64,000 nt of DNA from Nitrospiraceae bacterium (GTDB lineage: Bacteria > Nitrospirota > Thermodesulfovibrionia > UBA6902), in assembly GCA_003599275.1 (NCBI GenBank), contig QZJG01000005.1, positions 24,583 through 88,582 of the forward strand, read 5' to 3'. The notes beneath the pieces were generated by a model. That model searched no databases, had not been told where the DNA came from, and saw only the letters and a list, made by a program, of their open reading frames with translations. The position numbers were made by a program, and so were the translations under genes. Shown here piece by piece: positions 40,813 through 64,000 of this stretch. Position 1 is the first letter of the stretch. Each line of letters begins with the position of its first letter.

Positions 40813-42864
40813 CTAACACCTTGCTTCCATAAACGCGGCAAATTCATTGGCCGGCAGCGGTCTGCTGAAGTGATACCCCTGTGCCTCGTCGCAGCGTATG
40901 ATCTGCAGGAATGCAAGCTGCTCCTCAGTCTCGACACCTTCCGCGATCACCTTAAGGTTCAGGCTGTGGGCGAGGTTGATGACCGCATTTATGATCGACT
41001 TGTAATCAGGGTCTGCCGAAAGACCGAGGACAAAGGACTTGTCTATTTTGAGCATCTGGATCGGCAGCTTCTTCAGGTAGTTCAGGGACGAATATCCTAT
41101 GCCGAAATCGTCAATGCAAAACCTCACTCCGGCATCGGTCAGTTTATTGAGATAAGGGACCGCCAGCTCTATCTCCTGCATTACAGTGCGCTCGGTAATT
41201 TCGATGCCGAGGTAGCCCGGGTCCAGGCCGGTCTCTTTCAATATAGCGGAGACCGTCTCCGCAATGTCGGCCCTCTGAAAATAACGGGACGAAAGATTTA
41301 CCATTATGCAAACAGGCGAACGTCCGTCCTTTTGCCATTGCACACTCTGCGCGCAGGTGGTCCGCAGCACCCATTCATCGATATTGACGATAAGACCCGC
41401 TTCTTCAGCTAACGGTATAAACTGCATGGGATGCAGCAGGCCCATCTCCGGATGCCGCCAGCGCACCAGGGCCTCGGCGCAGAGTATTTGTCCGGTGTCC
41501 AGGCTCACCTGCGGCTGGTAGTGCAGGACCAGCTCCCCGGCCTCGATAGCGTGTCGCAGGCGGTTTGTAAGCTTCAGCCGCTCCAGCGCCCGGATATTCA
41601 TTGTCGGGTTATAAAACTGATAATTGTTCCGTCCTCTCTTCTTGGCGGCATACATGGCAGCGTCCGCGTTTTTAAGCAATATATCGCCGTCATCGCCGTC
41701 AACCGGGAACAAACTGATGCCGACGCTGGGCGACGTGTGGAGCGTATGACTGTTGACCATGAACGGCTCCAGGAAGGACGATACGATCTTCCTCGCGATA
41801 GTGACGATGTCTTCTTCATGATTTACGCGCGACAGGAGAACGGTGTATTCGTCTCCGCCGAGACGCGCCAGGGTATCGCTTTCACGCAGGCACGTCTTCA
41901 GACGGCGCGAGACCGCCTGCAGGAGCAGGTCTCCTACCGCATGTCCCAGGGAATCGTTTATCTCCTTGAAATTGTCGAGGTCCAGATACATAACGCCCAC
42001 CATATGCTGGTCGCGCATCGCCTGTGTCAGTGCGAGTTTGAGGTGGTCGATAAACAGCGCCCGGTTCGGCAGGCCGGTCAGCATATCATGATAGGCCTGG
42101 TGCTTTATGGCCTCTTCTATCTGTTTGCGTTCCGTGATGTCTATGATAATTCCGGACAAAACATCCTTATTGAGGGTTATGCTGAAAAGCAGATTTCTGG
42201 CCTTTCCCGTCTTTGTGACGGCCCTGATTTCAAAGTTGTCCAGCTTCCCTGTTTTTTTCAGGTTGTCGATTAAAGTCTTTCTGTCTTTCGGGGCCTCATA
42301 GATAGAAAGGGCCCTGCTGGACATAAACTCCTCCGCCGATCCATATTCGAGCATCCTGACCAGCGCATCGTTTACAAAAAGGATATCGCCCCTGAGATTT
42401 GTCTTGAACACCCCTGCGAGCGCATTGTCGACGAGGTCCCTGTATTTTTCCTCGGACTCCGCAAGCGCATCCATCATCAGCTTTCGCTCAATGGCGTACC
42501 GAATTGAACGGACCAGCAGGCCGCTGTTCACGCTCCCCTTGACCAGGTAGTCCTGTGCGCCAAGCTTCAGCGAGGAAATAGCCGTGCCTTCATCTTCAAG
42601 ACCCGTCAACATAACAATCGGGACATTCGGCGCAAGCTTCTTTATCCCGGCAATGGAGTTGATCCCGCCGCTGTCGGGAAGCCCGAAGTCCAGCAGAACA
42701 ACGTCAAAGGAGTGTTTGGCTAATTTAGCCAATCCGTCCGAAAGGGTGCCTGAATGCTCAAGCGACTGAGACAATGATGTTGCCTCAGTCAGCATTTCCT
42801 TTATCAGCCGGAAGTCTCCATCGTTGTCCTCGATGAGAAGGATGCGTAATTTTTTTACGGTCAT
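40813..42864 (-). CDS. REC-PAS-GGDEF-EAL c-di-GMP enzyme
   Basis: REC (LLIEDN..LLDFGLPD), PAS, HDMLTGLPNR, RxxD I-site (RESD) plus GGDEY, AEALVRW, IDDFGIGYSSL, KIDKSF, AEGVE. Confidence 0.95.
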   Translation of the reverse strand: MTVKKLRILLIEDNDGDFRLIKEMLTEATSLSQSLEHSGTLSDGLAKLAKHSFDVVLLDFGLPDSGGINSIAGIKKLAPNVPIVMLTGLEDEGTAISSLKLGAQDYLVKGSVNSGLLVRSIRYAIERKLMMDALAESEEKYRDLVDNALAGVFKTNLRGDILFVNDALVRMLEYGSAEEFMSSRALSIYEAPKDRKTLIDNLKKTGKLDNFEIRAVTKTGKARNLLFSITLNKDVLSGIIIDITERKQIEEAIKHQAYHDMLTGLPNRALFIDHLKLALTQAMRDQHMVGVMYLDLDNFKEINDSLGHAVGDLLLQAVSRRLKTCLRESDTLARLGGDEYTVLLSRVNHEEDIVTIARKIVSSFLEPFMVNSHTLHTSPSVGISLFPVDGDDGDILLKNADAAMYAAKKRGRNNYQFYNPTMNIRALERLKLTNRLRHAIEAGELVLHYQPQVSLDTGQILCAEALVRWRHPEMGLLHPMQFIPLAEEAGLIVNIDEWVLRTTCAQSVQWQKDGRSPVCIMVNLSSRYFQRADIAETVSAILKETGLDPGYLGIEITERTVMQEIELAVPYLNKLTDAGVRFCIDDFGIGYSSLNYLKKLPIQMLKIDKSFVLGLSADPDYKSIINAVINLAHSLNLKVIAEGVETEEQLAFLQIIRCDEAQGYHFSRPLPANEFAAFMEARC

Positions 42865-42890
42865 GGTTTGTTACCCCCAAATCAATATGT

Positions 42891-42928
42891 ACATCCTATC
42901 ACCTGTACTGCGATTTGACAATAGTAAA
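42891..42928. repeat. 38-bp imperfect direct repeat (left flank of the TA module)
   Basis: ACATCCTATCACCT-N9-TTTGACAATAGTAAA, repeated at 43783-43820. Confidence 0.8.
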
Positions 42929-43051
42929 GTGAAAGCCCCTGTAACCGATTATGGGTGGGGGGTTCTAAGGAGTGAAGCGACGAAAGATCTGAGGTAAAAA
43001 GATAAGAGGGAGTTATGATTCCGATACGACAGAGGTGGTTAACGGTTGCTT

Positions 43052-43474
43052 TCATACAAAAGGGTTTCTGACCGTTAGGCCCTTTATCTTATGGTTGTCG
43101 GCAAAGTCCTCTGAAAGGACCGTTGTCGCGCCGCCTGCGAAGGCAGCCGCTACAACAAGCGAGTCCCAGAAAGAATACCTGTATCTTTCCTGTAATTCTG
43201 TCGCTTCTATTATCGTTTCAATATCAATTATCACCGTGTCCCATTTTGAGAGTCTCTTTATTGTCTCTCTGGCAAAGGCCGGATCAATCGGCGCAGGGAT
43301 CTTTTTTGTTACTGTAACGAAAAACTCCTGCAGGATCTGGGTGCTCAACGTCCCGAGGCCGGAAGCCCAAAGGTCTTTCATGATATCAAGCGCAATACGG
43401 TGCTTGTGCCCTGCGTCAAGGTCATAGGCATACACAAGCACGTTGGTATCGACAAAGACCTTATCTCCTCTCAT
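43052..43474 (-). CDS. vapC: PIN-domain toxin (VapC family)
   Basis: FVDTNVLVY, STQILQEF, SFWDSLVVAAA, LSED. Confidence 0.9.
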   Translation of the reverse strand: MRGDKVFVDTNVLVYAYDLDAGHKHRIALDIMKDLWASGLGTLSTQILQEFFVTVTKKIPAPIDPAFARETIKRLSKWDTVIIDIETIIEATELQERYRYSFWDSLVVAAAFAGGATTVLSEDFADNHKIKGLTVRNPFV

Positions 43475-43706
43475 GAAGCTCCTCGCGCGAGCAAGGCATA
43501 TGTCCGCCGGTGCCGAGATGCAGCCCCTGCTCCATAAGCTTTATTTCCCGCTTCATCGCGTCCTGATATCCCGTATCTTTCCTTATCTTATCTTCGAGAG
43601 ACTCCCTGATCAATGCGCTCAGCGACTTTTCCTCTTTCAGCGCAAGCATCTTCGCTTTCTTCACTATTGCCCTGGGAAGCGACAACGTCAAATTTTGCCT
43701 TTCCAT
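43461..43706 (-). CDS. ribbon-helix-helix-like antitoxin
   Basis: QNLTLSLP...KAK.LA....SLSALIRE, C-terminal SREELHER; overlaps the PIN gene; AAGGAGG SD. Confidence 0.85.
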   Translation of the reverse strand: MERQNLTLSLPRAIVKKAKMLALKEEKSLSALIRESLEDKIRKDTGYQDAMKREIKLMEQGLHLGTGGHMPCSREELHERR

Positions 43707-43723
43707 AAAACCTCCTTTCCAAA

Positions 43724-43765
43724 ATCACATGATTACGTATATCACATAATCATGTGATAAGTCAA
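43724..43765 (-). promoter_or_regulatory. TA promoter with overlapping operator inverted repeat
   Basis: ATCACATGATTA(43724-35)/TAATCATGTGAT(43747-58); minus strand TTGACT-18-TATACG with TGn. Confidence 0.7.
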
Positions 43766-43782
43766 ACAACATACGTATCCGC

Positions 43783-43876
43783 ACATCCTATCACCTCTCC
43801 CGCACTTTGACAATAGTAAACCCGAACTCTTCAACCGACTGCACTATCTGCCTCAGGTGTTCAAACCGCAACGGTT
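43783..43876 (-). pseudogene. 3' remnant of a response regulator gene
   Basis: 43817-43876 is identical to 46054-46113 (PLRFEHLRQIVQSVEEFGF of the adjacent RR), continuing to TIVKVRER*. Confidence 0.7.
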
Positions 43877-45918
43877 CCTTTCCCCATGACCCTTGCCCCT
43901 TGACTCTGTCTCTTATCCGGTATCGTAAAACAAAACGTTGCCCCTTTGCCTTTCTCCGACTCGCCCCATATACGCCCTCCGTGACGTTCCACAATCTTCT
44001 TGCAGATCGCCAGCCCGGCGCCTGTGCCCGGATATTTGTCGCGTGTATGAAGACGCTTGAACATGAGGAATATCCTGTCGAAATATTCCGGGGCAATACC
44101 GATGCCGTTGTCACTGACCTGTATGACCCATTCGGCTCCTTTGTGTTCGGCTGAAATGCGGATGCGGGGCGGCTCATTACTATGGAACTTGATTGCGTTT
44201 TCAATAAGGTTCTGAAACAACTGCACCATCTGTACTTCATCAGAATGAACGGACGGCAGTATTTCGTTTATAATCTCAACCCGGTTTTCTTCAATCGCTG
44301 TGTTCATATTGTCGGACGCCCTCTTGAGCGCGACATTCAGGTCCGTCAGAATAAAAGGCTCCTCTCCCCTTCCAATCCTTGAGTAACTGCGAAGGTCACG
44401 GAGGAGCATCTGCATATACTCGGCCCCGCTGACTGCAAAACCGATAAAGTCATCGGCGTCCTTATCAAGTTTGTGCTTATACCTCTGCCCTATCAACTGC
44501 AAAAAGCTTGAGACCATGCGGAGCGGCTCCCGGAGGTCGTGGGACGCGATATAGGCGAACTGTTCAAGCTCCCGGTTGTACCGCTCAAGGTTATCGGCAA
44601 GGGACTTCAACTGCTCGATATTGGCTTCCCTTTCTCTCTCTGCGCACTTACGCTCCGTGATGTTGTCGAACACGGCCACAAAATGTCCCTTTTCCATGCT
44701 GTAGACCGAAAGGGACAGGCAGATGTCCAGCGGGGCAAATTGAATCTCGAATTTCTCAGGCCTGCCCGTCAGCGCGACCCTGCCGTAGATTTCAAATAAT
44801 TCCGGATGTGACTCCTTGATGCCGGGAATTGCCTCGGTCACTTTTTTGCCCACTACGTTTTCCAGACCGGTCAGTCTTCCGAAGGCGCTGTTGACGTCGA
44901 GATAGACAAAATCCGCAGGGCGTCCCAGGTCATCAAAAAGCATCCTGCAGTAAGCGCACCCTTCCACCATGTTTTCAAACAGCGAGTGATAACGCTGCTC
45001 GCTCTCACGAAGTGCTTCCTCCGCCCGCGTGCGCTCCTCCATCTCTTTGCTTAATTCATCCCTCGAAACCGTCATGTCCGCGAGTTTCATATAAGGCTCA
45101 TTGACCGATGCGATGAATACCCCCTTATACATCATGTAAAAAGCGGCTATTTTATAGACATGCCCAAGTACGTTATAGGTGTCAAACACCTTCGTGTAGC
45201 TCGCAAAGATGATCTCGCTGAAGATGCTGATGATAAAGGCAGCCAGGTAGTAGATTACGGCCCTGTCCCCGGTCTTCTTCATCCGCCGTCGGTAAACTGC
45301 AGCCGAAATGCACAGGCCCACGACTACCAGGTATTCGGAGATTTTCTTGAAAGGTGTAAGGCCGGTCCCCTGGATATGGGTGACGGGTGCGTACTCAGGG
45401 AAAAAGACGGTCCCGGTAACTACAAGCCCTGTCAAGAGAATGGCCGACACCATCAACACCTTTTTCGACAGCCACCTGATGGGTCTCTCCGGGTAAATAT
45501 ATGCGCTGGCCAGGAATGCCGCGGCCTGGAACAGCCTCGCGGCTATCCAGAACTGGGTAGACTTGTTGGAAGAATTGGCGGTTATAAAGGCAGGCATGGC
45601 GGCGTTGCTCATGGTATGCATGAAGTCCAGGAGGCCGATGGAAAGGAAGGCAGTGCTCAAAAAAAGCGCGTGCCGGTTACCGGACCGTTCATAAGTATAC
45701 CAGCCGATGCCGAAGATGGAGAAGGAAACCATAATGCTGAAAAACTCGGCTATGTTATGGAAGACAACATACGACTCCGCAGGTATAACACGGTCAAACT
45801 GCGAGGGAAACATTACTACCGCCAGAACCGGCAGCGCCGACAGTAAGAAGACGGCTGTCAGGATGCGTTGGTTAGCCCCTCTTTGGAAAAGAGGGATCAG
45901 AGGAGATTTTTTAATCAT
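43861..45918 (-). CDS. MASE3-PAS sensor histidine kinase (Cph1-like kinase core)
   Basis: HNIAEFFSI..SFSIF, LDFMHT.S...MP, FWIAAR, NVLGHVYK (MASE3); ELEQFAYIASHDLREPLR, QLFQNLIENAIKF, DNGIG, GAGLAIC; GGAG SD before ATG 45918. Confidence 0.9.
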   Translation of the reverse strand: MIKKSPLIPLFQRGANQRILTAVFLLSALPVLAVVMFPSQFDRVIPAESYVVFHNIAEFFSIMVSFSIFGIGWYTYERSGNRHALFLSTAFLSIGLLDFMHTMSNAAMPAFITANSSNKSTQFWIAARLFQAAAFLASAYIYPERPIRWLSKKVLMVSAILLTGLVVTGTVFFPEYAPVTHIQGTGLTPFKKISEYLVVVGLCISAAVYRRRMKKTGDRAVIYYLAAFIISIFSEIIFASYTKVFDTYNVLGHVYKIAAFYMMYKGVFIASVNEPYMKLADMTVSRDELSKEMEERTRAEEALRESEQRYHSLFENMVEGCAYCRMLFDDLGRPADFVYLDVNSAFGRLTGLENVVGKKVTEAIPGIKESHPELFEIYGRVALTGRPEKFEIQFAPLDICLSLSVYSMEKGHFVAVFDNITERKCAEREREANIEQLKSLADNLERYNRELEQFAYIASHDLREPLRMVSSFLQLIGQRYKHKLDKDADDFIGFAVSGAEYMQMLLRDLRSYSRIGRGEEPFILTDLNVALKRASDNMNTAIEENRVEIINEILPSVHSDEVQMVQLFQNLIENAIKFHSNEPPRIRISAEHKGAEWVIQVSDNGIGIAPEYFDRIFLMFKRLHTRDKYPGTGAGLAICKKIVERHGGRIWGESEKGKGATFCFTIPDKRQSQGARVMGKGTVAV
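45876..45909. repeat. solo CCCCTCT..AGAGGG-type palindromic repeat translated in the N-terminus of the MASE3 kinase
   Basis: CCCCTCTTTGGAAAAGAGGGATCAGAGGAGATTT resembles the repeats flanking the DUF559 gene at 59973-60350. Confidence 0.55.
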
Positions 45919-45982
45919 AAACAACTCCAAATCTTTTCTATGTCCGCATCGAATTTCTCAAAAACTTCTTTATCAGAAAATC

Positions 45983-46471
45983 TCAGACTTTTAATCCTGA
46001 TTTAGTCGAAAAATCATCTCTTATTTGATCTCTCTCGCCTTTCTTCACTATCATAAACCCGAACTCTTCAACCGACTGCACTATCTGCCTCAGGTGTTCA
46101 AACCGCAACGGTTTGGTAAAGTAGTATTTCGCACCGAGGCGGTAGCTTACGATAATGTCCTCTCTGTCTTCCGAAGAAGTCACCACCGCAACTGGAATGT
46201 CTTTCAGCTCCGGATCATTCGTGATCTCCCTGAGCACCTCGCGGCCGCTTTTATTCGGGAGGTTCAGGTCCAGAAGAATGAGATCGGGCTGCGGAACGCC
46301 GGAATATGTCCCCTCACGGCGGAGAAAAGACATGGCCCCTTCCCCGTCGTTTACAACATGGAGGCAGTTATGCACCTTCGCGTCCCTGAGCATCTCCTGC
46401 ATCAGACGCACGTCACCGGGGTTGTCCTCGATGAGGAGGATATTGATAGTGGATGTAGTTTCTTTGTCCAT
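45983..46471 (-). CDS. single-domain response regulator (Rcp1-like)
   Basis: ILLIEDNPGDV, DGEGA..FL, PDLILLDLNLP, IPVAVVTSS, YFTKP; start uncertain. Confidence 0.9.
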   Translation of the reverse strand: MDKETTSTINILLIEDNPGDVRLMQEMLRDAKVHNCLHVVNDGEGAMSFLRREGTYSGVPQPDLILLDLNLPNKSGREVLREITNDPELKDIPVAVVTSSEDREDIIVSYRLGAKYYFTKPLRFEHLRQIVQSVEEFGFMIVKKGERDQIRDDFSTKSGLKV

Positions 46472-46545
46472 ATAAAAAATAGGGGCAATGGCTTCTGCCC
46501 CCTCCCTTTCGGACAGAGGCTTCACCTCTGTCGTATTCGTGGCAG

Positions 46546-46935
46546 TCAGGAGGCCACCCTTCTGCCCTCTCCCTTGACGGGAGGGGGTGAGGGGGAGGGT
46601 GTTTCAATACAGTTCATCCTTATAACCTCTAATACTCCTCTTGTATTTAAAAATACTTCATTATTCCAAAATCGCAAAACCCTAAATCCTCTCTGCGCAA
46701 AATACTTGTCTCTTTTTGTATCATTTTCATTTTCAGAATGTTGCCCTCCGTCTATTTCAATAATTAAGCGGTTGCTAAAACATACAAAGTCAACTATGTA
46801 ATTACCTATTGGTTGTTGTCTCCTGAATTTAAATCCTTCTATCTGTTTAAGCCGTAAATTATTCCATATAAGTTGCTCTGCTCTGGTTAGCCTTTTCCGC
46901 AACGTCCTGGCGTTACCATATAATGGATTAATCAT
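46546..46935 (-). CDS. DUF559 (Vsr-like PD-(D/E)xK) endonuclease
   Basis: ARTLRKRLTRAE..IW..LR.KQ..GFKFRRQQPIGNYIVDFVC....LIIEIDGGQH......D..RD......GFRVLRFWN. Confidence 0.92.
   Translation of the reverse strand: MINPLYGNARTLRKRLTRAEQLIWNNLRLKQIEGFKFRRQQPIGNYIVDFVCFSNRLIIEIDGGQHSENENDTKRDKYFAQRGFRVLRFWNNEVFLNTRGVLEVIRMNCIETPSPSPPPVKGEGRRVAS
46565..46601. repeat. palindromic repeat, downstream arm flanking DUF559 #1
   Basis: CCCTCTCCCTTGACGGGAGGGGGTGAGGGGGAGGGTG; 31/37 identical to the reverse complement of 46944-46980. Confidence 0.85.
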
Positions 46936-46943
46936 TTAATGGT

Positions 46944-47084: not shown

Positions 47085-48884
<1,800 letters not shown>

Positions 48885-48899
48885 GCCTGTTTTTGCCCT

Positions 48900-49238
48900 T
48901 TACTTCTTCGTCCTGAGATCAAGGCCGATGAGGATTTTATCAGTATTGGACATGTCGCCTATAAACTTTCTGATCGGCAGGGGGAGCTTTTTTATAAGGG
49001 TCGGCGCCGCAATGATCTGTTCACCCTTTGCAAGCACCGGCTGCTGGAAGATATCTACAATCTCAAGTTCGTAGCGGCCTTTGAGATGCTCCTCACAAAT
49101 TCCCTTTATGTTCATGACGGCCTTCATGGACCTCGGCGTCATGCCGGTCACGTAGAGCTTCAGTATATATTTCTCTTTGCTCTTCTCACCGGCCATTTCC
49201 TCTAAATTGCTGATTGTATCTTCGGTCTTCCTTTTCAT
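48900..49238 (-). CDS. kaiB: circadian clock protein KaiB homologue
   Basis: YILKLYVTGMTPRS..A..N...ICEEHL.G.YELEIVDI..QP.LA...QIIAAPTL.K.LP.P.RKFIGDMS. Confidence 0.95.
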   Translation of the reverse strand: MKRKTEDTISNLEEMAGEKSKEKYILKLYVTGMTPRSMKAVMNIKGICEEHLKGRYELEIVDIFQQPVLAKGEQIIAAPTLIKKLPLPIRKFIGDMSNTDKILIGLDLRTKK

Positions 49239-49245
49239 ATCGTCC

Positions 49246-49620
49246 TCATTTCCCTACCCTCAGATCGAGGCCCACAAGGACCCGCTCTGTATTGGAGAGG
49301 TCGCCTATTATTTTCCTTATCGGCACGGGAAGTTTTCTTACAAGTGTGGGAAGCGCAAGTATCTGATCGCCCTTCGCAAGCTGGGGATTTTTCAAAAGGT
49401 CTATCACCTCTATTTTATATATGCCTTTCAGGTGCTCTTCGCAGAGATTCTTAAGGTTGTTAAAGGCGGTGACGGACTTAGGGGTCTGGCCTGCTACGTA
49501 GAGTTTGAGCTCCCATATTTCACCCGCCGGTTCTCCTTTTGCGGGTTTAGATAATGCCTTCCGGTTTTTTGCCGGTGACTTCGACGATGTTTTCTTTTCG
49601 GTTTTTGCAGCAGCGCTCAT
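49246..49620 (-). CDS. kaiB: circadian clock protein KaiB homologue
   Basis: [17 protein letters not shown]...[53 protein letters not shown]. Confidence 0.95.
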
Positions 49621-49671
49621 CTTTTCCTCCCTTTTGTACTGCCCCTAACAGTTCTTTATATTTTCCGGGCT

Positions 49672-49736
49672 GTCATTCCGGCTTGTCCGGAATCTTCCCT
49701 TTTTAAAAGAAGGATTCCCGACGTTGCGGGAATGAC
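49672..49736. repeat. REP-like element between kaiC and kaiB
   Basis: GTCATTCCGGCTTGTCCGGAATC...GGATTCCC-GACGTTGC-GGGAATGAC. Confidence 0.8.
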
Positions 49737-49772
49737 GGATAACGTATATCTATTAATAAGACAGGACACTTG

Positions 49773-51497
49773 CTATTTCTGTTTGTATATCCGTCCCTTT
49801 TTTTTCGACGATGCGTCCGCCTTGCGCATGCCTGCTATAACGCCGCGGTCTGCGGCAAGGGCATTTTCTTTCAGCTCCTGTTCCTTCACGCTGGCCAGCA
49901 GTGCCTCTTCAGCAGATTCGTACTCTGCGCGGACTTCATTTATCTTTGCCTCCATGATCAGCCGCTTTCTCTCGAGCTCTCGTTTGACCCTTTCGAGCTC
50001 TTCCCTGCGGACAACGGACTCTGCCTTTTCCTTCATCTCCTGGACCCTCCGGGCTGAGCCGGTCAGTACCATGCCCTGTCCCACGTACACATCGGTGAGG
50101 TCTATGCCCTTGGCTGTTATCAGGAACTCCCGTATCTGGTTGGAGTGCGCCATGCCTCTTGACTTAAGCACGTAGAGACCCCGGGTGCGCTCTCCATTAT
50201 ATTCGATATCACGAAGGAGGAGCCACGTGTCCATGAGGGACGTTACCGCGACCACGGTCTGCTCCAGGTTCTGACCTCCGTGGGTGAGGCTTGTGCAGAG
50301 GGTGGTGATATAACTGGATTTCAGTATATCGATCATCCTCATCAGCATGGCCTTGACTTCATCCACTGACCCGATATTTGTCATGCCGGTAATCGGATCT
50401 ATAACCGCAATGTTCGGCCGGAATTCCCTGATCAGCTTATTGATTGTGACGAGGTGCATCTCCAATCCGGAGTATGTCGGCCTTGCCACATGAAAGTGCA
50501 GAAGCCCCTTCTTCACCCAGGGGGCGAGGTCAAGACCGATGGACTTGGCATTCCGGATGATCTGGTGTGCGGATTCCTCTGAGGCCATATAAAGGCACCG
50601 CTCGCCCCGGCTGCACGCCTTGTTGACGAGGTGCATGGCCAGGCTTGTCTTTCCTGTGCCTGCCGTGCCTGATACAAGGATGCTGCTGCCCCGGTAATAG
50701 CCTTTGCCGTCAAGCATCGCGTCGAGTCTCGGGATGCCGGTCGGCACGCGCTCGTCGGTCGCTTTGTGATTGAGCCCGACAGAAGTTATAGGCAGGACTG
50801 AAAAGCCGGTCTCATCGATCAGGAAGGGATATTCGTTCGTGCCGTGTACGGAACCACGATATTTGACGATCCGCAGGCGGCGCGTCGATATCTGCTCCGT
50901 CACCCTATGGTCGAGCATGATAACGCAGTCGGCCACATATTCTTCAAGCCCGTGGCGGGTAAGGGTGCCTTCCCCCTTTTCTCCGGTGATGATAGCGGTG
51001 ACTCCCTGCGCTTTTAACCACCTGAAAAGGCGGCGCAGCTCCGCGCGCAGGACATTGGGGTTAGGCAGCCCTGAAAAAAGGGCCTCGATAGTATCGATCA
51101 CTACCCTCTTTGCTCCGACGGATTTGATGGCATGGTCAAGTCTGATGAATAGCCCTTCAAGGTCATATTCCCCCGTCTCCTCGATCTCGCTCCGCTCGAT
51201 ATATACATAATCGACAACTATCTTCTTTTTCTTTGAAAGGTCTTCAAGGTCAAAGCCGAGCGAGGCGACGTTCTTTGTCAGCTCCTCCGCGTTCTCCTCA
51301 AAGGCCATGAATACACCCGGTTCATTAAACTGGACCGCGCCGCGCACCAGGAATTCCATTGCGAGCAGGGTCTTGCCGCAGCCCGCGCTCCCGCAGACCA
51401 GCGTGGGGCGGCCCTTCGGCAGCCCGCCTTGCGTTATCTCGTCGAGGCCCTGGATGCCGGTCGCGCATTTCTTAAGGGCTGACATCATTTTTTGCAT
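49773..51497 (-). CDS. kaiC: double-domain circadian clock protein KaiC (KaiC2-like, C-terminal coiled coil)
   Basis: CI Walker A GSAGCGKT with FEE; CII GTAGTGKT with SEE; KYRGS and KSRGMAHSNQIREF; AAGGA SD before ATG 51497 (alternative start 51527). Confidence 0.96.
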   Translation of the reverse strand: MQKMMSALKKCATGIQGLDEITQGGLPKGRPTLVCGSAGCGKTLLAMEFLVRGAVQFNEPGVFMAFEENAEELTKNVASLGFDLEDLSKKKKIVVDYVYIERSEIEETGEYDLEGLFIRLDHAIKSVGAKRVVIDTIEALFSGLPNPNVLRAELRRLFRWLKAQGVTAIITGEKGEGTLTRHGLEEYVADCVIMLDHRVTEQISTRRLRIVKYRGSVHGTNEYPFLIDETGFSVLPITSVGLNHKATDERVPTGIPRLDAMLDGKGYYRGSSILVSGTAGTGKTSLAMHLVNKACSRGERCLYMASEESAHQIIRNAKSIGLDLAPWVKKGLLHFHVARPTYSGLEMHLVTINKLIREFRPNIAVIDPITGMTNIGSVDEVKAMLMRMIDILKSSYITTLCTSLTHGGQNLEQTVVAVTSLMDTWLLLRDIEYNGERTRGLYVLKSRGMAHSNQIREFLITAKGIDLTDVYVGQGMVLTGSARRVQEMKEKAESVVRREELERVKRELERKRLIMEAKINEVRAEYESAEEALLASVKEQELKENALAADRGVIAGMRKADASSKKKGRIYKQK

Positions 51498-51532
51498 GCT
51501 CGTCTTCCTTTCTGAATATGGTTTCATAATGT

Positions 51533-54500
51533 TTATTGTTCGTCTTCAAAGTCGAGGGCATAGCGCAAAGGCAGGCCTGCCCGTGCGCAGAGCTCGTTTA
51601 TTTCTTTTTTCAATTCTATCATGCGCAGCTCCCGGCCGACCGCGGCATTGTTAAAGCGGGTCAATTCCTCATATCTGGCGCGCAATTCCTCCTCCGCCTT
51701 CTTTCGCTCGGTGATATCGTGGGCGACGTGCACCGAGGCGATCAACTTTCCCTGTTCATCAAACATCGGGGTGGTGGTAACCAGCAAGTCCATACCGAGA
51801 TGCTCTTCGTGTATCTCCTGGACGTGCTCGCGGCCGTCCTTAATGGTGCGGGAATGAGGGCAGAAATCAGGCGGGGCCGTTGTCCCGTGCACGGCCTCAT
51901 AACACTTCATCCCGACGCACTCTTCAGGCTTGCGTCCGAGACGCCTTGCCATTGATTCGTTTACCCGCATGATCGTGTGGTTATTGTCGAGTATCGCTAT
52001 CATGTCCGGAACGTTTGCGAAGGTCCGCTCCCATTCCTCCCTTGCGCGGCTGATCTCCTCCGCGGCCCGTTTGCGCTCCGTGATATCGCGCTCGGTAGTC
52101 GCAATGGCGACCGGTTTCCCCGTATCGTCAGCCAATACGGTCGCGGTCTGCCAGATGTCCAGAACGCGGCCGTCCTTTGTGAGACGCTTCGTCTCGAACG
52201 GGGACACTGGCTCGCCGAGGTACAGGGTTTCGAGGTACGCAAGCGCCTCTGAGAGCTTCTCAGCCGGTATCGTGTCTCTGATCTTCATCTTCAGTGCCTC
52301 GGTCTCGGTCCAGCCGAACAACCGCTCCGCCCCATGGTTCCAGACCGTGATATTTCCCTCGAAGTCATGGACCATTATCGCGTCGTTGGAATCCCGAAGC
52401 ACGGCGGCCAGCTTGCGCGAGGCCTCAGCGAGATGTCTTGTGCGCTCCTCCGCCAATTTGATCTCGGTGACGTCGCTATAGGTGATGATCACGCCCTCGA
52501 TACGGTTGTCGGAAGTTCTGTACGGGAGCGCGGTCCTGACATACCAGACATCCTTGAGCAGGATTTCATTCTTCACCGGGACAAGGTTGTCGAGAACGGT
52601 TTGCGCGTCGGCGATCAGGTCTGGGCCGACAGCCTCCTGCGACATATCCGCAATCGGCCTTCCCACGTCGGAGGGGATGAGCTTCAGCAGCCTTGACATG
52701 GCGGGGGTGAAGCGTTTCACCCTGAGCCGGTGATCAAGAAATACTGTAGGTATATTTGTGCTTGCGAGAAAGTTGTTCAGGTCGTTGTTGGTCTCATCCT
52801 GCTCCTCGATCTTGCCCTGGAGCTGGGAATTCACGGTAATAAGCTCTTCATTCAGAGATTGCAGCTCTTCCCTCGAGGTCTCAAGCTCCTCGTTGGCTGC
52901 CTGCAATTCCTCGTTGGATGATTGCAGCTCTTCGTTGAGGCTCTTAAGCTGCTCAATATGGCTCTGGAGGTCCGTGCGCGTTGCCGAAAGCTCGCTTTCA
53001 AGCTGGCGGATGGCATTGACATCAACGTCAGCGGCCTCCATAGCAGCGGCTTCCTGCTCGGAGATCCCGCCCTTCTCATGGAACACGATAAGGGACAGGT
53101 CCCCTTTCAATCTTGAAATGCGCAGAGTGACCTGGATTTTCTTCTCGTCATCTCCGGGTATGCTGGCCCGGATCGAGACAGGTTTTGCCTCCCGGGTCGT
53201 CCTGTAGATCGCCCCCCGGACCCTGCTTCGCAGGTTTTCAGAGAGGAGCTCAAGCAGGTTCTGCGTGGGCGCGCCACGGGGCTGGCGGAGGTACCTGTTG
53301 GTGGGGCCGTTATGGTAAATGATGTCGTAATATTGATTGATCGCCACTGCCGCAGGGGCATATTCCTCAAGCAGGGACTCCTGGATGGCCCCGGTGACGG
53401 ACTGCTGCTCCGTGATCGACGCCCGCGTTGGAAGAGGCACAGCGCGCTCCGATGCAAAGGGAACCGGAAGCGGCAGTCTTGCGGAAGTCGTTGCCTCGAT
53501 CTTTTGATAGACGCGGCATTTTTTATGGGCCAGGGACCTGAAGAGGGAACTGCTTCTGCCGACGGACTCCGCATTGCCGAGGAAGAGATAGCCCCCCTCT
53601 TTAAGCGCATAATGAAACAGGGTGATGCATTTCTCCTGGGCCAGAGGTTCGAGATATATGAGCAGGTTGCGGCAGATGATCAGGTCGAGCCGCGAAAACG
53701 GCGGGTCTGTGAGAAGGTCCTGTTTGGCAACCACCACGCGCTCGCGTATCTCTTTGCCGATAATCACCGAAAGGCCGTCTTCGGAGCATGTGAAATATCT
53801 CTTCATGAAATCCGGCGGCACGTCGGCGGCAATGCTGCCGGGGTATTTGCCTTCACGCGCCTTATCGAGCGCCCGGTCGTTGACGTCCGTGGCAAAGACC
53901 TGTATCTCCCTCTTCCTCCCGGCAAGCTCAAACTCGTTGTGAAGCATCATGGCAATGGAATACGCCTCTTCCCCGGTTGCGCACGCTGGGGTCCAGACCC
54001 GGACAGGGAAGTCATTCTCTTCCGCTGCGAGCTTCCTTATCACGCCGAGATTGAGGGCCTTCCATGCCAGCCTGTCACGGAAAAAAGAGGTGACCCCTAT
54101 CATGAAGTCGGCGGCAAGGGCGCCTGCCTCGGCGTCATTTTCCGCCACCATTTCCATGTAATCCTTCACCGACAGGACCCCGCGCAGGTACATGCGCCTC
54201 CTGATCCTGCGGTTGATTACGTTCTGTTTATAATAATTAAAGCGGTACCCGGTCTTCTCAATTATCAGCCGGTAGAAGGTCTCGAAATCTTCCCCTGTAA
54301 TAACGCCTTCAGTGCTTATTGAGGCGGCCCCGTGGAGCTTCAATATCTCTGCGGCGATTTCCTCAGGCGACAGCACGCCGTCCGCCTTCCCCGTATCTAT
54401 GGCGGCGAGAGGCATTCCCGGAAACTCGGCAGTGGCCGGTGCCTGGACAAAGACCGTCCCGCCCGCATTCTTTATTTCGTGAATTCCACGCGCCCCGTCC

Positions 54501-54942: not shown

Positions 54943-55317
54943 TTATTTGTTCTTTATAAATTCCTCTATCTGTCCCACGAATTTCTCCGGGACTATCGGC
55001 TTATCGATGTAGCCGTCGAAGCCGGCGGAGAGCACCTTGTCGCGGTCGCCTACCATCGCCAATGCGGTAACTGCTACGAGCGGGATCTGGCGCAGCACCG
55101 GGTCCTTTTTGAGATATTTCGCAACTGCATAACCGTCTACTATGGGCAGGTGCACGTCGCAGATTATGAGGTCCAGCATCTCCCTTTTTGCCGTAGTTAT
55201 GCCTTCTTCACCATTATGCGCAATCAGGACCGTGTAGCCGAAGGAGCTGAGTAAATAGCTCATAAGCTCCATGTTCGCAGGGTTGTCTTCGATGATCAGT
55301 ATTCGTGCTTGTTGCAT
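54943..55317 (-). CDS. single-domain response regulator (DivK-like)
   Basis: ILIIEDN, IICDVHLP..DG, IPLVAVTALAMVGDR, GFDGYIDKPI. Confidence 0.93.
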   Translation of the reverse strand: MQQARILIIEDNPANMELMSYLLSSFGYTVLIAHNGEEGITTAKREMLDLIICDVHLPIVDGYAVAKYLKKDPVLRQIPLVAVTALAMVGDRDKVLSAGFDGYIDKPIVPEKFVGQIEEFIKNK

Positions 55318-59896: not shown

Positions 59897-59911
59897 GGTT
59901 ATATCTCCGTC

Positions 59912-59987
59912 AAAACACTCCCTCTTGTTAGAGGGGTGACAGGCTTCTAATTTCCCCTCTAACAAGAGGGGATTAAGGGGTGTGTTT
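59912..59987. repeat. pair of CCCCTCT..AGAGGGG palindromic repeats downstream of DUF559 #2
   Basis: CCCTCTTGTTAGAGGGG (about 59920-36) and TTTCCCCTCTAACAAGAGGGGATTAAGGGGTGTGTTT (59951-87). Confidence 0.85.
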
Positions 59988-60350
59988 ATTTTCAATTCCT
60001 TTCATACAATCTTTTATATCTTCTACTACCCCATCAATATTGTTTATTACATCTTCATCTCTGTATCTCAAAATTGTTATCCCCATTTCTCTTAAACGTT
60101 GTTCTTTCTTTTTATCTTTTTCAAATACCTCTTCAAAGCCATGCGTATAACCGTCTACTTCAATGGCCAACATCAGTTTATTGCAGAAGAAATCTGTAAT
60201 GTAATTTTCTACCGGTTTTTGCCTGTGAAAGGCATAGTCCATTAGTTGTTTCCCTTTTAAGCAACTCCAAAGTTTTATTTCTGCTTTTGTACTATTATTC
60301 CTCAAGCGTCGAGCTAATTCTTTCAACTCGGAATTGTATTTAATTTTCAT
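59973..60350 (-). CDS. DUF559 (Vsr-like) endonuclease
   Basis: YNSELKELARRLRNNSTKAE..LW..LK.KQ...Y.FHRQKP..NYI.DFFC..LMLAIEVDG.TH. Confidence 0.92.
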   Translation of the reverse strand: MKIKYNSELKELARRLRNNSTKAEIKLWSCLKGKQLMDYAFHRQKPVENYITDFFCNKLMLAIEVDGYTHGFEEVFEKDKKKEQRLREMGITILRYRDEDVINNIDGVVEDIKDCMKGIENKHTP

Positions 60351-60352
60351 TA

Positions 60353-60387
60353 AAACACACCCCTGGCCCCTCTTTTTAGAGGGGAAA
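60353..60387. repeat. palindromic repeat, upstream arm flanking DUF559 #2
   Basis: AAACACACCCCTGGCCCCTCTTTTTAGAGGGGAAA; near reverse complement of 59951-59987. Confidence 0.85.
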
Positions 60388-60473
60388 AACTACCCACGCA
60401 CATAACTTTCATCACCCCCACCCTGCCGTCAAGGGGGAAGGAATGTCTTGCCACTTGACCCTTGATCCTGTCT

Positions 60474-63400
60474 TTACGCCTTCTCATCCAGCACTATCGT
60501 AAACTCACTCCCCTTGCCGTACTCACTCTTCATGGTGATCCGGCCTTCGAGAAGCTCGGCCAATTTTTGGCTCAGGTACAGGCCCAGCCCCGTGCCTTCA
60601 TACTTGCGGGAGCTTGAGGTGTCCACCTGGGTGAAGGCATGGAACAGCCTTTGCTGATCTTCGGGTTTGATGCCAATGCCGGTGTCTATCACGCTCAGCT
60701 CGGTGCGCTGGGCGCCGTTGTAACTGTAGCGGCGAAGCTCAAGCCTCACTTCTCCTTTTTGGGTGAACTTGATCGCATTATAAGTCAGGTTGAGCAGTAT
60801 CTGGCTGATAGCGCGGCGGTCCGTGCCTACTATCACGTCCTGGTCCGGCATCCTGTAGTACAGCTTGAGCCCCTTGCTTTCCGCCAAAGGCCGCAGCGTG
60901 TTGGTGACTTCCTGCACTACAGCCTGGCAGGAGACCGGCTCCGTTTGTATCTCTATCTTGCCTGATTCGATCTTTGCAAGGTCCAACAGGTCATTGATCA
61001 AAAGGAGCAGGTGCTTGGCGCTTGTTGAAACATTCGTCAATTGGTTTTCCTGGTCTGTTGTCAGCGGCCCCGGCAGCTTCATAAGCAGCGTGCCGGTGAA
61101 GCCTATGATCGCGTTCAGCGGCGTGCGTAATTCATGACTCATGCTTGCAAGGAACCGGTCCTTGGCAAGGTTGGCGTTTTCCATTTCCTCGCTCTTCTCC
61201 TGCAGGGTCTGCTCAAACCGCTTGCGCTCAGTAACGTCACGCGCCGCAGCGAACACGCCCTGCAGCTTGCCGTCCCGGTCTGCAAACGTTGTCGCGTTAT
61301 AACTGACGACCGTCTCCCGGCCCTGCTTGCTGCTGGCGGTAAGCTCGTAGTTTGTGACCTTGCCCTCGCGCAGCACCAGCCGGATGCCATCCTCCGCGCG
61401 GCTGGGGTCTGTGAAGTAATTCTTGAAAGGCGTGCCTATCAGCTCCTCACGGGTATGGCCGGTTAGCGCCTCCATCTGCTGGTTGACGTCCGTGACCAGG
61501 CCGACTGGGTCGGTGGTCATCAGCGCGTCTATGTTGGATTCAATTAGAGAACGTGAATAGAACTGCTGGTCGCGGAGCTGCTGCTCCAGCTTCTTCTGCT
61601 CGGTAATGTCACGGGCTGCTGCAAGTATGCCGATCTGTTTGCCTGCGGCATCGGAGAACACGCCGGCGTTGAAGCTGACCGGTATCCTCCTGTTCTGGCG
61701 CGTGATAAGCACCAGCTCGTATCCAAGGACCCGCGCCTGGGAGAGGGTCTGCTGCACGCCGGCATTGGCGCGGGCAGGCTCTGTGAAATAAGGCGAGAAC
61801 ATGGAATTTATAAGGTGCTTGCGGGAATAACCCGTCAGGCGCGTCGCTTCCTCATTAACGTCGGTTATCACCCCGTCAGGCGCGATAGCAAAGAGCGCGT
61901 CCGCGCTCGCCTCGATCAGTGAACGGTTGTAGGCCTGTTGATCGACAAGCTGTGTTTGCAGTCTCGCTTGTTGGCTGATGTCACGGGCGCTGGCGAATAT
62001 TCCCTGCATCCTGCCATCTGCAGCGCGGAACACCGAGGCGTTGAATGAGACCGTGGACTTTTTGCCGGTCTTGGTCTTTAACACAAGGTCATAGTTGGTG
62101 ACCACGCCCTCTGCGATGGTGCGCTTGACGCCCATGCTGGCGCGGAGGGGATCGGTGAAATAGTTTTTAAACTGCGTGCCGATCAGGTCTTCGCGGGGAT
62201 AGCCGGTCATGCGGCACATCTGCTCATTCACATCTGTAATGAACCCTTCGGGATCGACCGTGATAAGACCGTCAACGGACGATTCGATAAGACCGCGCAG
62301 GTAGGTCTGCTGCTCCTGCAATTGCTCATTGAGGCGCACGCGGTCGGTGATGTCACGGGCGCTGGCGAATATACCTTTGACATTTCCGGACGGGTCTTTA
62401 AACACCGAGGCGTTGAACGACACCTGCAACAGCCTGCGGGTGCGGCTGATCAGGGTCAGCGCGTATTCCGTAACAACGCCTTTGTCAAAGGTCTCTCTTA
62501 CCCCGGAAAGGGCCAGGGCCGGCTCGGTAAAGTAATCGGCAAACGGCGTGCCTATCAATTCAGCGCGGTTGTAGCCGCTCATCTGGCACATACGGTCATT
62601 AACGTCGCTGATTATCCCGTCAGGGTCAACCGTGATAAGACCGTCGACCGAGGCCTCGATCAGACCCCTGTTATAGGCCTGTGATTCACGGAGCTGCTGC
62701 TCAAGCTTCTTCTGCTCTGTAATGTCACGGGCCGCGGCGAACACGCCCTGCAGCTTGCCTTCCCTGTCGTTAAAGGTTGTGGCGTTATAGGAGACGACCG
62801 TTTCCTTGCCCTCTTTTGCGCGGGCGGTCAGCTCGTAGTTTGTGACCTTGCCTTCGCGCACAACGAGCTTGATGCCCTCCTCAGCGCGCTGCGGGTCCGT
62901 GAAAAAGTTTTTAAAAGGCGCGCCGATAAGATCTTCACGGGTAAAGCCCGTCAGGCCTTCCATCTGATAGTTTACGTCGGTGATTATGCCCAGCGGGTCG
63001 GTGGTCATCAGGGCGTCTATGTTGGATTCAATAAGTGAACGGGTATAAAACTGTGACGCATTCAACTGGGACTCCAGCTTCTTCTGGTCAGTAATGTCAC
63101 GGGCGCTGGCGAATATGCCGCGCACCTTGTTGGATGCGTCTTTAAATATAGCGGCGTTGAATGAGACAGGCACCAATTGCCCGTCCGCGGCCTGGAGGGT
63201 CAAAACGTAGTTGGTGACCGAACCCTCATTAAACGTGAAGCGCACGCCTTCCGCCGCGCGCTCGCGCTCTTTGAAATATGCCGGGAATGAAGAGCCGATG
63301 AGCTGGTTTCTCCGTCTGCCCGCCATGCGGCACATGGTCTCGTTGACGTCCGTGATCGTCATGTCTTCGTCGACCGTGACCAGGCCGTCCACGCTGGCCT

Positions 63401-64000
63401 CGATAAGACCCCTGTTGTACGTCCGCTCATCGCTGAGCTGTCCCTGCAGCCGCGACTGGTCGGTAATGTCACGGGCGCTGGCGAAAATACCGCGCACCGC
63501 GCCGGACTCGTCTTTAAATATGGCGGCGTTGAATGAAACAAGCTGCTCGCTGCCTTCCCTGGTGTGAAGGGTCAATTCATAGTTTGTGACCGCGCCTTTA
63601 TCAAGGGTCAGCCTGACGCCCTCGGCAGCGCGCTTTGAATCAGTGAAATAACCGGGGAACGGCGTGCCGACAAGCTCCTGCCGCGAATAACCCGACATGC
63701 GGCACATGGTCTCGTTGACGTCAGTGATGTTCAGCATCGGATCGACCGTGATAAGACCATCGAGGGAGGCCTCGATGAGACCCCTGTTATATGCGCGCTC
63801 TTCAGAGAGCTGGGTCTGGAGCCGCGACTGCTCGGTAATGTCACGGGCGCTGGCGAATATGCCTTTGACGCCGCCTGTGGGATCTTTAAACACCGAGGCA
63901 TTGAACGAGACGACCAGCTTCTGCCCCTCACGTGTGGCCATTGTCAGGGCGTAATCCGTGACCACGCCTTTATCAAAGGTCTGCCTGACCCCGGAATCCG
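60474..64000 (-). CDS. multi-PAS (at least 8 repeats) cytoplasmic histidine kinase, 5' end outside window
   Basis: Repeating Y.R.LIE...D.L...D...I.DVN...ARD(I/V) units; FLASMSHELRTPL, NLTYNAIKFT, DTGIG, GTGLGL; frame open to the window edge. Confidence 0.95.
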   Translation of the reverse strand, partial: DSGVRQTFDKGVVTDYALTMATREGQKLVVSFNASVFKDPTGGVKGIFASARDITEQSRLQTQLSEERAYNRGLIEASLDGLITVDPMLNITDVNETMCRMSGYSRQELVGTPFPGYFTDSKRAAEGVRLTLDKGAVTNYELTLHTREGSEQLVSFNAAIFKDESGAVRGIFASARDITDQSRLQGQLSDERTYNRGLIEASVDGLVTVDEDMTITDVNETMCRMAGRRRNQLIGSSFPAYFKERERAAEGVRFTFNEGSVTNYVLTLQAADGQLVPVSFNAAIFKDASNKVRGIFASARDITDQKKLESQLNASQFYTRSLIESNIDALMTTDPLGIITDVNYQMEGLTGFTREDLIGAPFKNFFTDPQRAEEGIKLVVREGKVTNYELTARAKEGKETVVSYNATTFNDREGKLQGVFAAARDITEQKKLEQQLRESQAYNRGLIEASVDGLITVDPDGIISDVNDRMCQMSGYNRAELIGTPFADYFTEPALALSGVRETFDKGVVTEYALTLISRTRRLLQVSFNASVFKDPSGNVKGIFASARDITDRVRLNEQLQEQQTYLRGLIESSVDGLITVDPEGFITDVNEQMCRMTGYPREDLIGTQFKNYFTDPLRASMGVKRTIAEGVVTNYDLVLKTKTGKKSTVSFNASVFRAADGRMQGIFASARDISQQARLQTQLVDQQAYNRSLIEASADALFAIAPDGVITDVNEEATRLTGYSRKHLINSMFSPYFTEPARANAGVQQTLSQARVLGYELVLITRQNRRIPVSFNAGVFSDAAGKQIGILAAARDITEQKKLEQQLRDQQFYSRSLIESNIDALMTTDPVGLVTDVNQQMEALTGHTREELIGTPFKNYFTDPSRAEDGIRLVLREGKVTNYELTASSKQGRETVVSYNATTFADRDGKLQGVFAAARDVTERKRFEQTLQEKSEEMENANLAKDRFLASMSHELRTPLNAIIGFTGTLLMKLPGPLTTDQENQLTNVSTSAKHLLLLINDLLDLAKIESGKIEIQTEPVSCQAVVQEVTNTLRPLAESKGLKLYYRMPDQDVIVGTDRRAISQILLNLTYNAIKFTQKGEVRLELRRYSYNGAQRTELSVIDTGIGIKPEDQQRLFHAFTQVDTSSSRKYEGTGLGLYLSQKLAELLEGRITMKSEYGKGSEFTIVLDEKA

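Follow-up and report, generated by a model that had tools for sequence, protein, structure and literature searches.

In the KaiBC system of R. sphaeroides (structures 8DBA, 8FWI and 8FWJ), the C-terminal extension of KaiC (KaiC_RS) links two hexamers, and autophosphorylation proceeds independently of KaiA in an hourglass driven by ATP/ADP, as described by Pitsawong et al. (2023) in the available text of PMC10076222. Outside the cyanobacteria, the gene after kaiC-kaiB commonly encodes a kinase or a GGDEF/EAL protein, which was noted as early as 2011 in the accessible sections of De Luca et al. (PMC3164672). Two further systems are described in the available parts of their reports. The N-terminal PAS domain of a P. 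putida kinase suffices to bind its partner KaiC (preprint 10.1101/2022.01.26.477890), and in S. elongatus the PAS domains of KidA, a PAS x4-GGDEF-EAL protein, bind fold-switched KaiB (PMC9478674). Here we describe a kaiC-kaiB-kaiB locus found in a Nitrospiraceae bacterium, on a 64,000-nucleotide stretch of contig QZJG01000005.1 (positions 24,583 to 88,582; the window). A first-pass annotation of the window had read the locus as one Kai-centred signalling super-system. The locus is better explained, with a probability of roughly 60%, as a horizontally acquired mosaic signalling island that extends from rpoD to a cca-like gene and consists of two separately conserved modules and selfish inserts. 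Among the observations behind this reading are the following: most of the upstream genes are clustered in a genome that has no KaiC, the same genes are missing from 90 other Kai loci, and the interval between rpoD and the cca-like gene differs greatly between this organism and a relative of the same genus.

The cluster comprises 15 consecutive open reading frames (ORFs), all on the minus strand and separated by gaps of -23 to 187 nt. It spans 24,623 nt once the first kinase is followed beyond the end of the window, in agreement with the earlier figure of more than 23 kb. Gene order and domain architectures were taken from the ORF listing and a Pfam scan, and the order reported earlier was confirmed: a multi-PAS histidine kinase (HK1), a Pkinase-AAA_16-GAF protein, a single-domain response regulator (RR1), a CheB-CheR-PAS protein (CheBR), KaiC, two KaiBs (KaiB-alpha and KaiB-beta), a PAS histidine kinase (HK2), a second response regulator (RR2), a MASE3-PAS histidine kinase (MASE3-HK) and a REC-PAS-GGDEY-EAL protein (labelled DGC). 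Coordinates are collected in Table 1. The first module would consist of KaiC with its coiled-coil tail, KaiB-alpha, KaiB-beta, HK2 and RR2. The second would consist of HK1, the Pkinase-AAA_16-GAF protein, RR1, CheBR and MASE3-HK, a Nitrospirota block existing elsewhere without Kai, and its link to Kai would be at most a local rewiring. Handles such as G200 and L011 denote genomes and loci of the comparison sets.

KaiC of the window carries PF06745 in two stretches (E 1.6e-112), with Walker A motifs at 49 (GCGKT) and 290 (GTGKT) and catalytic glutamate pairs at 77-78 and 317-318. Residues T424, T429 and S430 (ORF numbering) are present at the phosphorylation sites; T429-S430 and T424 presumably occupy the positions of S431/T432 and T426 in S. 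elongatus KaiC. Among solved structures, R. sphaeroides KaiC (8DBA) is the closest, at E 1.1e-194. It aligns with residues 18-568 of 584, a span that takes in the ~50-residue coiled coil at the C-terminus, and this tail is kept in the relatives of the window KaiC. The phospho-site pair is Thr-Ser in the window and not the two serines of the KaiC2/KaiC_RS type; among 31 relatives the majority consensus is Ser-Ser and the serine is invariant in all 31. Ser-Ser is also what the available text of PMC10076222 describes for the kaiC2 group. The first ATG of kaiC lies 5 nt from the CheBR stop and the second (51497) 35 nt from it, as close as previously stated. The second ATG is preceded by a purine-rich Shine-Dalgarno-like run, GAAAGGAAG, and agrees with a 574-aa database model. 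The tree of KaiC departs from the organism phylogeny, and the window KaiC falls among records from Nitrospirae, Pseudomonadota, Oligoflexia and Desulfuromonadales. One Nitrospirae record set holds two complete Kai cassettes on two contigs (L011 and L012), with KaiCs 88% and 87% identical to that of the window.

The source genome, a 3.05 Mb draft in 74 contigs (88.6% complete), gave no match to the KaiA family PF07688, for which an S. elongatus control was positive; KaiA3-like proteins were not searched. One double-domain KaiC is encoded, and in a genome-wide search KaiB domains were found only in the two stand-alone KaiBs, with no third, SasA-like KaiB domain on any kinase. The absence of kaiA and sasA reported for the window was thus confirmed at the level of the genome. 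A weak KaiC-family match on contig C44, near a second gene with the CheBR-type tail described below, was identified as DnaB. No type-II reaction-centre gene was matched in the genome, in line with the earlier suggestion of a probably non-phototrophic host. Like the cyanobacterial KaiABC-SasA-RpaA system, the locus has a double-domain KaiC with autokinase residues and KaiBs of the same Pfam family, but it differs in lacking a KaiA match and a KaiB-like domain on its kinase, in the order kaiC-kaiB-kaiB and in its PAS reader. With R. sphaeroides KaiBC it shares a coiled-coil-tailed KaiC in place of KaiA and a KaiB with alpha-type residues, whereas the window host has no reaction-centre match of the kind searched for. 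The tail aligned to 8DBA and the lack of a KaiA match support the KaiA-independent, hourglass-type timer of the purple-bacterium kind that had been proposed by homology.

Conservation of the neighbourhood was studied in 90 Kai loci: 80 were collected from species-representative genomes and 11 from a phylum sample, and one duplicate was dropped. Their ORFs were annotated by searching with domain segments taken from the proteins of the window. Where 900 nt or more of sequence was available after kaiC (81 loci), two KaiB genes were present in 75 loci and a single KaiB in the other six. A gene matching the N-terminus of HK2 came next in 74 of the 76 loci with at least 1800 nt downstream, the exceptions being L014 and L099. 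This arrangement was found in Nitrospirota, Bacteroidota, Planctomycetota, Verrucomicrobiota, Chloroflexota, Actinomycetota and others. Judged by this distribution, KaiC, KaiB-alpha, KaiB-beta, a gene starting with the HK2-type N-terminus (Kai-PAS) and a response regulator form a widespread self-contained cassette. The survey supports the downstream PAS kinase and response regulator as the conserved output of a KaiC-KaiB-KaiB timer. The description of the locus as an undescribed system was too strong for this core, since kaiC-kaiB beside a kinase or a GGDEF/EAL protein is already described in the accessible sections of the 2011 paper (PMC3164672).

The two KaiBs of the window are 53% identical and belong unambiguously to the family, with bit scores of 95.7 and 90.1 against a PF07689 cut-off of 27, and both are encoded beside kaiC. 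In trees with 76 rows for each position, KaiB-alpha and KaiB-beta were parted by a single branch with a support of 99 (FastTree) and 100 (SH-aLRT, IQ-TREE), and a handful of differences are fixed between the clades. Because first- and second-position KaiBs fall on opposite sides of one branch, the KaiB duplication predates the spread of the cassette over the phyla. Diagnostic alpha-type residues are common to KaiB-alpha and R. sphaeroides KaiB (8FWJ chain M). By these residues KaiB-alpha is assigned to the type of the characterized R. sphaeroides KaiB, and the KaiB-beta clade is uncharacterized. The window and 75 of the 81 relatives thus add a second, anciently diverged KaiB to what is described for R. 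sphaeroides, which was itself not checked for a KaiB-beta. No description of tandem KaiB paralogues was found in the portions of the literature searched.

HK2 consists of an N-terminal helix and the Kai-PAS domain (residues ~1-180), a second PAS domain and a HisKA/HATPase transmitter. In Kai cassettes of other phyla, the fourth gene begins with a region that shares 33-51% identity with residues 1-180. Invariant or near-invariant positions lie in the N-terminal helix and the first PAS strands of a 31-member Kai-PAS alignment. In a confident AlphaFold model of Kai-PAS (pLDDT, the predicted local distance difference test score, of 88), a long N-terminal helix and a hairpin come before the PAS core, which ends in a C-terminal helix; a fold search with this model returned only generic FixL/LOV-type PAS matches, which are uninformative about the partner. 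The Kai-PAS signature occurs once in the genome, in HK2, and in none of 18 Kai-less loci checked. What follows Kai-PAS varies by lineage: HisKA, a hybrid kinase, HisKA_3 (L036:12506-13681, an Anaerolineaceae record), a SpoIIE/PP2C phosphatase (L037:7616-9850, an Actinomycetes record) or GGDEF-EAL (L101). In most Bacteroidota Kai-PAS genes, only a coiled coil and no detected output domain stands behind Kai-PAS. A constant domain with varied outputs is the pattern expected of an input domain that reads Kai proteins, and the SpoIIE/PP2C and HisKA_3 fusions are probably other ways in which this timer is read out. Within the second PAS domain of HK2, 11 threonines (aa 271-281) are encoded by an (ACT)11 microsatellite that lies in frame at window positions 48041-48076. 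The length of this run could vary between cells, or the run could be an assembly artefact.

The PAS kinase and single-domain response regulator after the kai genes resemble the contexts described by De Luca et al. and for P. putida. The Pseudomonas systems, as far as they are described in the available text of the preprint, are without KaiB, whereas the reader of the window is a distinct helix-hairpin-PAS unit. In the proposed mechanism, KaiC would autophosphorylate without KaiA through tail-mediated assembly, by homology with R. sphaeroides KaiBC. Binding of KaiB would favour dephosphorylation of KaiC when ATP/ADP falls, which would make the system an hourglass or energy-state timer. The conservation of Kai-PAS suggests that this domain reads the Kai state and sets the activity of HK2.

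Evidence for the next step comes from the transmitter of HK2. Its identity is only 29-33% with its counterparts in other cassette kinases, against 63-65% with the transmitter of MASE3-HK and 62% with that of a PAS kinase of G266, a genome of the same genus without KaiC. HK2 and MASE3-HK carry the mutually closest paralogous transmitters in the genome, and two more distant paralogues exist. In G266 the kinase is followed in one operon by a response regulator and a REC-PAS-GGDEF-EAL protein that is 71% identical to that of the window. RR2 is 63% identical to the response regulator of this operon and 42% identical to a cassette response regulator. In G202, another Nitrospirota genome, the fourth gene of the cassette is itself a Kai-PAS-GGDEF-EAL fusion, the GGDEF-EAL part of which is 56% identical to that of the window. 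Based on the G266 operon, the paralogy of HK2 and MASE3-HK and the G202 fusion, the most likely route leads from HK2 by phosphotransfer to RR2 and/or the receiver of DGC, with MASE3-HK as a probable second input to the same receivers. The two kinases would converge there, and the output would be turnover of cyclic di-GMP (c-di-GMP). The c-di-GMP output proposed earlier is plausible in the light of the same operon and fusion.

The DGC protein has its receiver aspartate at position 59, an RESD I-site at 327-330 and GGDEY at 336-340, where GG[D/E]EF is the signature of diguanylate cyclases. Its EAL domain contains EAL at 464, DDFG at 585, EGVE at 642 and QGY at 662; we take EAL, DDFG, EGVE and QG[FY] to be the motif set of EAL-type c-di-GMP phosphodiesterases. 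Hydrolysis of c-di-GMP is therefore the safer prediction for this protein. Compared with the adjacent GGDEF/EAL genes described in the available part of PMC3164672, the c-di-GMP enzyme of the window would be reached through the proposed phosphorelay and not as a neighbouring gene. KidA is similar by description, being a PAS-GGDEF-EAL protein tied to Kai. However, KidA works in a KaiABC oscillator and is encoded outside the kai operon according to the accessible text of PMC9478674, and the GGDEF-EAL protein of the window has a receiver and no Kai-PAS. A direct fusion was seen only in G202.

The genes upstream of kaiC have a different history. HK1 is 1653 aa in full length and contains 10 PAS stretches in the contig sequence. 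In Hanks-type Ser/Thr kinases the catalytic loop carries HRD and the glycine loop GxGxxG. The Pkinase domain encoded next to HK1 has HGG in place of HRD and a degenerate glycine loop without GxGxxG, and its designation as a pseudokinase is justified. Pfam likewise agrees with the earlier statement that the pseudokinase-AAA-GAF protein and CheBR both lack a transmitter. HK1, the pseudokinase-AAA-GAF protein, RR1 and MASE3-HK were found in none of the 90 other Kai loci, and neither were matches to the Pkinase, AAA_16, pseudokinase-middle or MASE3 domains. None of these four genes lies upstream in L011 and L012, the nearest KaiC relatives. Orthologues of the block are found in one stretch of G200, a 100% complete genome of another family that has no KaiC match. 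The identities are 85% for HK1 (over 1542 aa), 82-85% for the pseudokinase, 71% for RR1, 66% for CheBR and 63% for the MASE3 sensor. The stretch (L113, L118 and L119; G200:C15:1671000-1713000) is a signalling island exceeding 30 kb, and the pseudokinase in it is split over three frames. An identity of 82-85% across families suggests a recent transfer. The G200 pseudokinase is likewise transmitter-less, and RR1 again comes directly after it. The only other close orthologue, in G235, is 69-71% identical and still ends in GAF-HATPase_c. The pseudokinase of the window would accordingly be a transmitter-less derivative that has kept its own kinase and response regulator neighbours.

These observations bear on the possibility that all eleven signalling genes form one Kai-centred network, in which the transmitter-less sensors feed KaiC or the kinases and c-di-GMP is the sole output. 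Genes on one strand with short gaps, and above all the 5-35 nt between the CheBR stop and the kaiC start, would fit such a network. Both sensors also need a partner, given that relatives (the G235 pseudokinase and several CheBR orthologues) carry a HATPase_c or kinase domain. The absence of the pseudokinase, HK1, RR1 and MASE3-HK from all 90 Kai loci and from the surroundings of the nearest KaiC relatives speaks against it, as does the clustering of the same genes in a genome without KaiC, where HK1 and RR1 are the more likely partners of the pseudokinase. A single super-system, as claimed in the first-pass annotation, was thus not borne out, and we consider it improbable. That annotation had itself named non-conservation of the flanking genes with kaiBC as grounds for giving up the claim, and most of the flanks were indeed not conserved.

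CheBR has to be considered separately from its neighbours. Its CheB (PF01339, 1.9e-48) and CheR (PF01739, 2.2e-47) domains are both present, providing methylesterase and methyltransferase domains, and are followed by a coiled coil of repeated EELQ-type heptads. The order CheB_methylest, CheR_N, CheR, PAS_10 is that of CheB/CheR fusion proteins in general (one source names them 'two-component system, chemotaxis family, CheB/CheR fusion protein'), from which the window CheBR differs by its position directly upstream of kaiC and, unlike several close orthologues, by the lack of a transmitter. The first-pass annotation had reported no chemoreceptor or cheA gene in the window, and no chemoreceptor, CheA or CheW gene was found on its contig (C3); other contigs hold all 8 matches to methyl-accepting chemotaxis proteins in the genome and all 9 to CheW. 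In 9 of the 90 Kai loci the flanking sequence retrieved contained a CheB-CheR fusion, and in one more a lone CheB. On the KaiC tree, the juxtaposition with kaiC required 7 changes for the 9 rows, or about seven origins. Three Nitrospirota families, represented by the window, G188 and G140, have CheBR as the gene immediately before kaiC, and it is also found beside other KaiC types in G275 and G262. The adjacency is enriched over a rough expectation of ~1-3% per locus (1-5 copies per 3-4 Mb), an estimate that is too low since signalling genes cluster generally.

The C-terminus of CheBR is a conserved tail of about 45 residues (window 51536-51680), for which Pfam gave nothing under E 0.01. A profile search of the genome with this tail returned only two ORFs, the second being G000:C44:28345-30063, after which a PAS gene follows. 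Tail-bearing, transmitter-less PAS proteins lie directly upstream of kaiC in L019, L047 and L054, and in L019 and L034 the tail is also found on the Kai-PAS gene itself. All profile matches are at the C-terminus of transmitter-less sensors (CheB-CheR-PAS, PAS-only, REC-PAS, HAMP-PAS and dCache-HAMP-PAS-GAF). At least 223 database proteins carry the tail, and most of them are CheB/CheR fusions; HATPase_c was seen in only 3 of the 120 listed. This distribution suggests that the tail serves split sensors in general as an output element, and it may be an output or docking element that is possibly undescribed. No paper on a link between KaiC or KaiB and CheB or CheR was found in the literature searched, at the level of titles and the beginnings of abstracts, and at the level of titles nothing relevant was found on the function of CheB/CheR fusions.

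A coupling of CheBR alone to the cassette could operate through docking of the tail on the KaiC coiled coil or on Kai-PAS, or through action of its methyltransferase and esterase on a cassette protein, which would add an adaptation input; the remainder of the island would then be independent. Its recurrence beside kaiC in 9 of the 90 loci by separate changes, in three Nitrospirota families and next to other KaiC types, would fit such a coupling, as would the tail upstream of kaiC in three further loci and on the Kai-PAS gene in two, and the restriction of the tail to two ORFs of the genome. Against this, the closest CheBR orthologues (60-70% identity) come from 13 genomes in none of which KaiC was matched. 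In the Kai-less loci CheBR carries a kinase, or a kinase and a response regulator come after it. The CheBRs beside kaiC are 43-45% identical to that of the window and no closer than other paralogues, the tail is common to very many proteins, signalling genes cluster generally, and the eight chemoreceptor genes elsewhere in the genome are possible substrates. A search of metagenome contigs for CheBR gave three short loci, none with KaiC, of which L105 ends ~860 nt past the CheBR stop; these are too short to carry weight either way. We regard the coupling as doubtful, with the odds well against it.

A far bolder version would make CheBR a dedicated Kai input: the tail would dock, and glutamates of the KaiC tail or the Kai-PAS helix would be reversibly methylated, with a mixed KaiB cap in which KaiB-beta recruits Kai-PAS. 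If this were true, methylation would shift the register gating KaiC phosphorylation and provide a KaiA-less timer with an adaptation memory in the style of chemotaxis. We regard it as highly speculative and give it only a slight chance of being correct.

The mosaic origin of the island is indicated by its distribution and boundaries. A KaiC match was obtained in 21 of the 301 genomes sampled from the phylum, but in neither of two same-genus genomes, none of three same-family genomes and neither of two same-order genomes. DNA of the same-genus genomes matches the window up to rpoD, and thereafter only segments of DGC, RR2 and the kinase core are matched, located elsewhere. Beyond HK1 the contig continues with a gap of 366 nt and a divergent DHH-DHHA1-CBS-PolyA_pol gene, the cca-like gene. 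The interval between rpoD and this gene is ~2.9 kb with two unrelated ORFs in G266 and 25 kb here, the cca-like genes being 81% identical. GC content is 0.533 in the island and 0.476 in the genome.

The cluster had been described as interrupted only by nuclease and toxin-antitoxin inserts. These inserts are present, but the 152-nt spacer between kaiC and kaiB is an additional dispersed repeat, with 13 further matches in its own genome and many in same-genus genomes; in most relatives the kaiC-kaiB gap is below ~50 nt or the genes overlap. Both DUF559 genes have the orientation of the signalling genes, are flanked by 35-58-nt sequences repeated on many contigs and look like small mobile units. 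One of them parts HK2 from RR2, whereas elsewhere the cassette response regulator directly follows the kinase. The DUF6364-PIN pair is, by its domains, also regarded as an insert outside the signalling logic. The intergenic spacers at 40619-40812 and 32318-32470 are dispersed repeats as well, with 48 and 47 further matches in the genome. Scans for consensus promoters and terminators did no better than chance, with 15 hits where 14.8 were expected on average and 21 where 20.6 were expected.

Could the Kai cassette be a recently transferred passenger, poorly integrated or decaying through the repeat, the DUF559 insert and the poly-Thr run? Its absence from the sampled genomes of the same genus, family and order would be explained, and the terminator-like hairpin between kaiC and kaiB, the insert between HK2 and RR2 and (ACT)11 in the PAS domain could be taken as signs of decay. 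However, the ORFs of the cassette are intact with their catalytic residues, and the inserts lie between genes and not inside them. HK2 has a transmitter of the local type, which suggests adaptation to partners of the host. Decay of the cassette was judged to be very unlikely.

Several points weigh against the mosaic of two modules and the output proposed for it. The 15 genes lie on one strand with short gaps, and co-transcription of both modules may occur. The recurrence of CheBR beside kaiC (9 of 90 loci), together with tail-bearing sensors at three further loci, hints at a real link. The transmitter shared by HK2 and MASE3-HK could be the product of gene conversion or domain swapping and not reflect a shared partner. 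GGDEY in place of GGDEF makes the cyclase activity of DGC uncertain. Finally, the genome is an incomplete draft, and the absence of KaiA is not proven.

Table 1. Features of the signalling island in transcription order (window coordinates).
Feature	Position	Strand	Basis and remarks
Multi-PAS histidine kinase HK1	60474..64000, continuing to 65435	-	Pfam PAS x7-10, HisKA, HATPase_c
DUF559 (Vsr-like endonuclease fold) insert	59973..60350	-	PF04480, 2.8e-29; GC 0.325
Pkinase-AAA_16-GAF pseudokinase scaffold, 1545 aa	55358..59995	-	Pfam; likely true start ATG 59896
Single-domain response regulator RR1	54943..55317	-	Pfam REC; acceptor Asp, Thr and Lys present
CheB-CheR-coiled coil-PAS_10-PAS-PAS protein (CheBR), 1123 aa	51533..54904	-	Pfam and sequence
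KaiC, KaiC2/R. sphaeroides type	49773..51527	-	PF06745 twice; probable start 51497
kaiC-kaiB spacer, dispersed repeat with terminator-like hairpin (49733-49714)	49621..49772	.	Repeat search
KaiB-alpha (first position)	49246..49620	-	PF07689, 1.4e-27
KaiB-beta (second position)	48900..49238	-	PF07689, 7.4e-26
PAS histidine kinase HK2	47085..48884	-	Pfam; Kai-PAS, second PAS, HisKA/HATPase
Second DUF559 insert	46546..46935	-	PF04480, 6e-39; GC 0.39
Single-domain response regulator RR2	45983..46525	-	Pfam REC; probable start ATG 46471
MASE3-PAS histidine kinase (MASE3-HK)	43861..45930	-	Pfam MASE3, 2.3e-69
DUF6364-PIN toxin-antitoxin-like pair	43461..43706 and 43052..43474	-	PF19891, PF01850; ORF overlap 14 nt
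REC-PAS-GGDEY-EAL protein (DGC)	40813..42864	-	Pfam

Upstream of the island, window positions 25742-28999 encode a 1085-aa fusion of a 4Fe-4S dicluster domain and a molybdopterin oxidoreductase, beside EPSP synthase and a sigma-54 two-component pair.

The features of note are general to the cassette and not particular to this locus: two ancient KaiBs, a modular Kai-PAS and a recurrent CheB-CheR or tail-bearing neighbour. Kai proteins are widespread outside the cyanobacteria, although their inputs and outputs there are mostly unknown. Their common non-cyanobacterial form is a cassette of four to five genes with two distinct KaiBs and a swappable reader domain, and the partners of this reader domain reveal the outputs, namely two-component kinases, a PP2C phosphatase and c-di-GMP enzymes. 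The locus also serves as a warning that, in genomes of this kind, a long series of signalling genes on one strand can be a mosaic of modules that move independently, and it gives a handle on the way in which non-phototrophic anaerobes read an hourglass timer.

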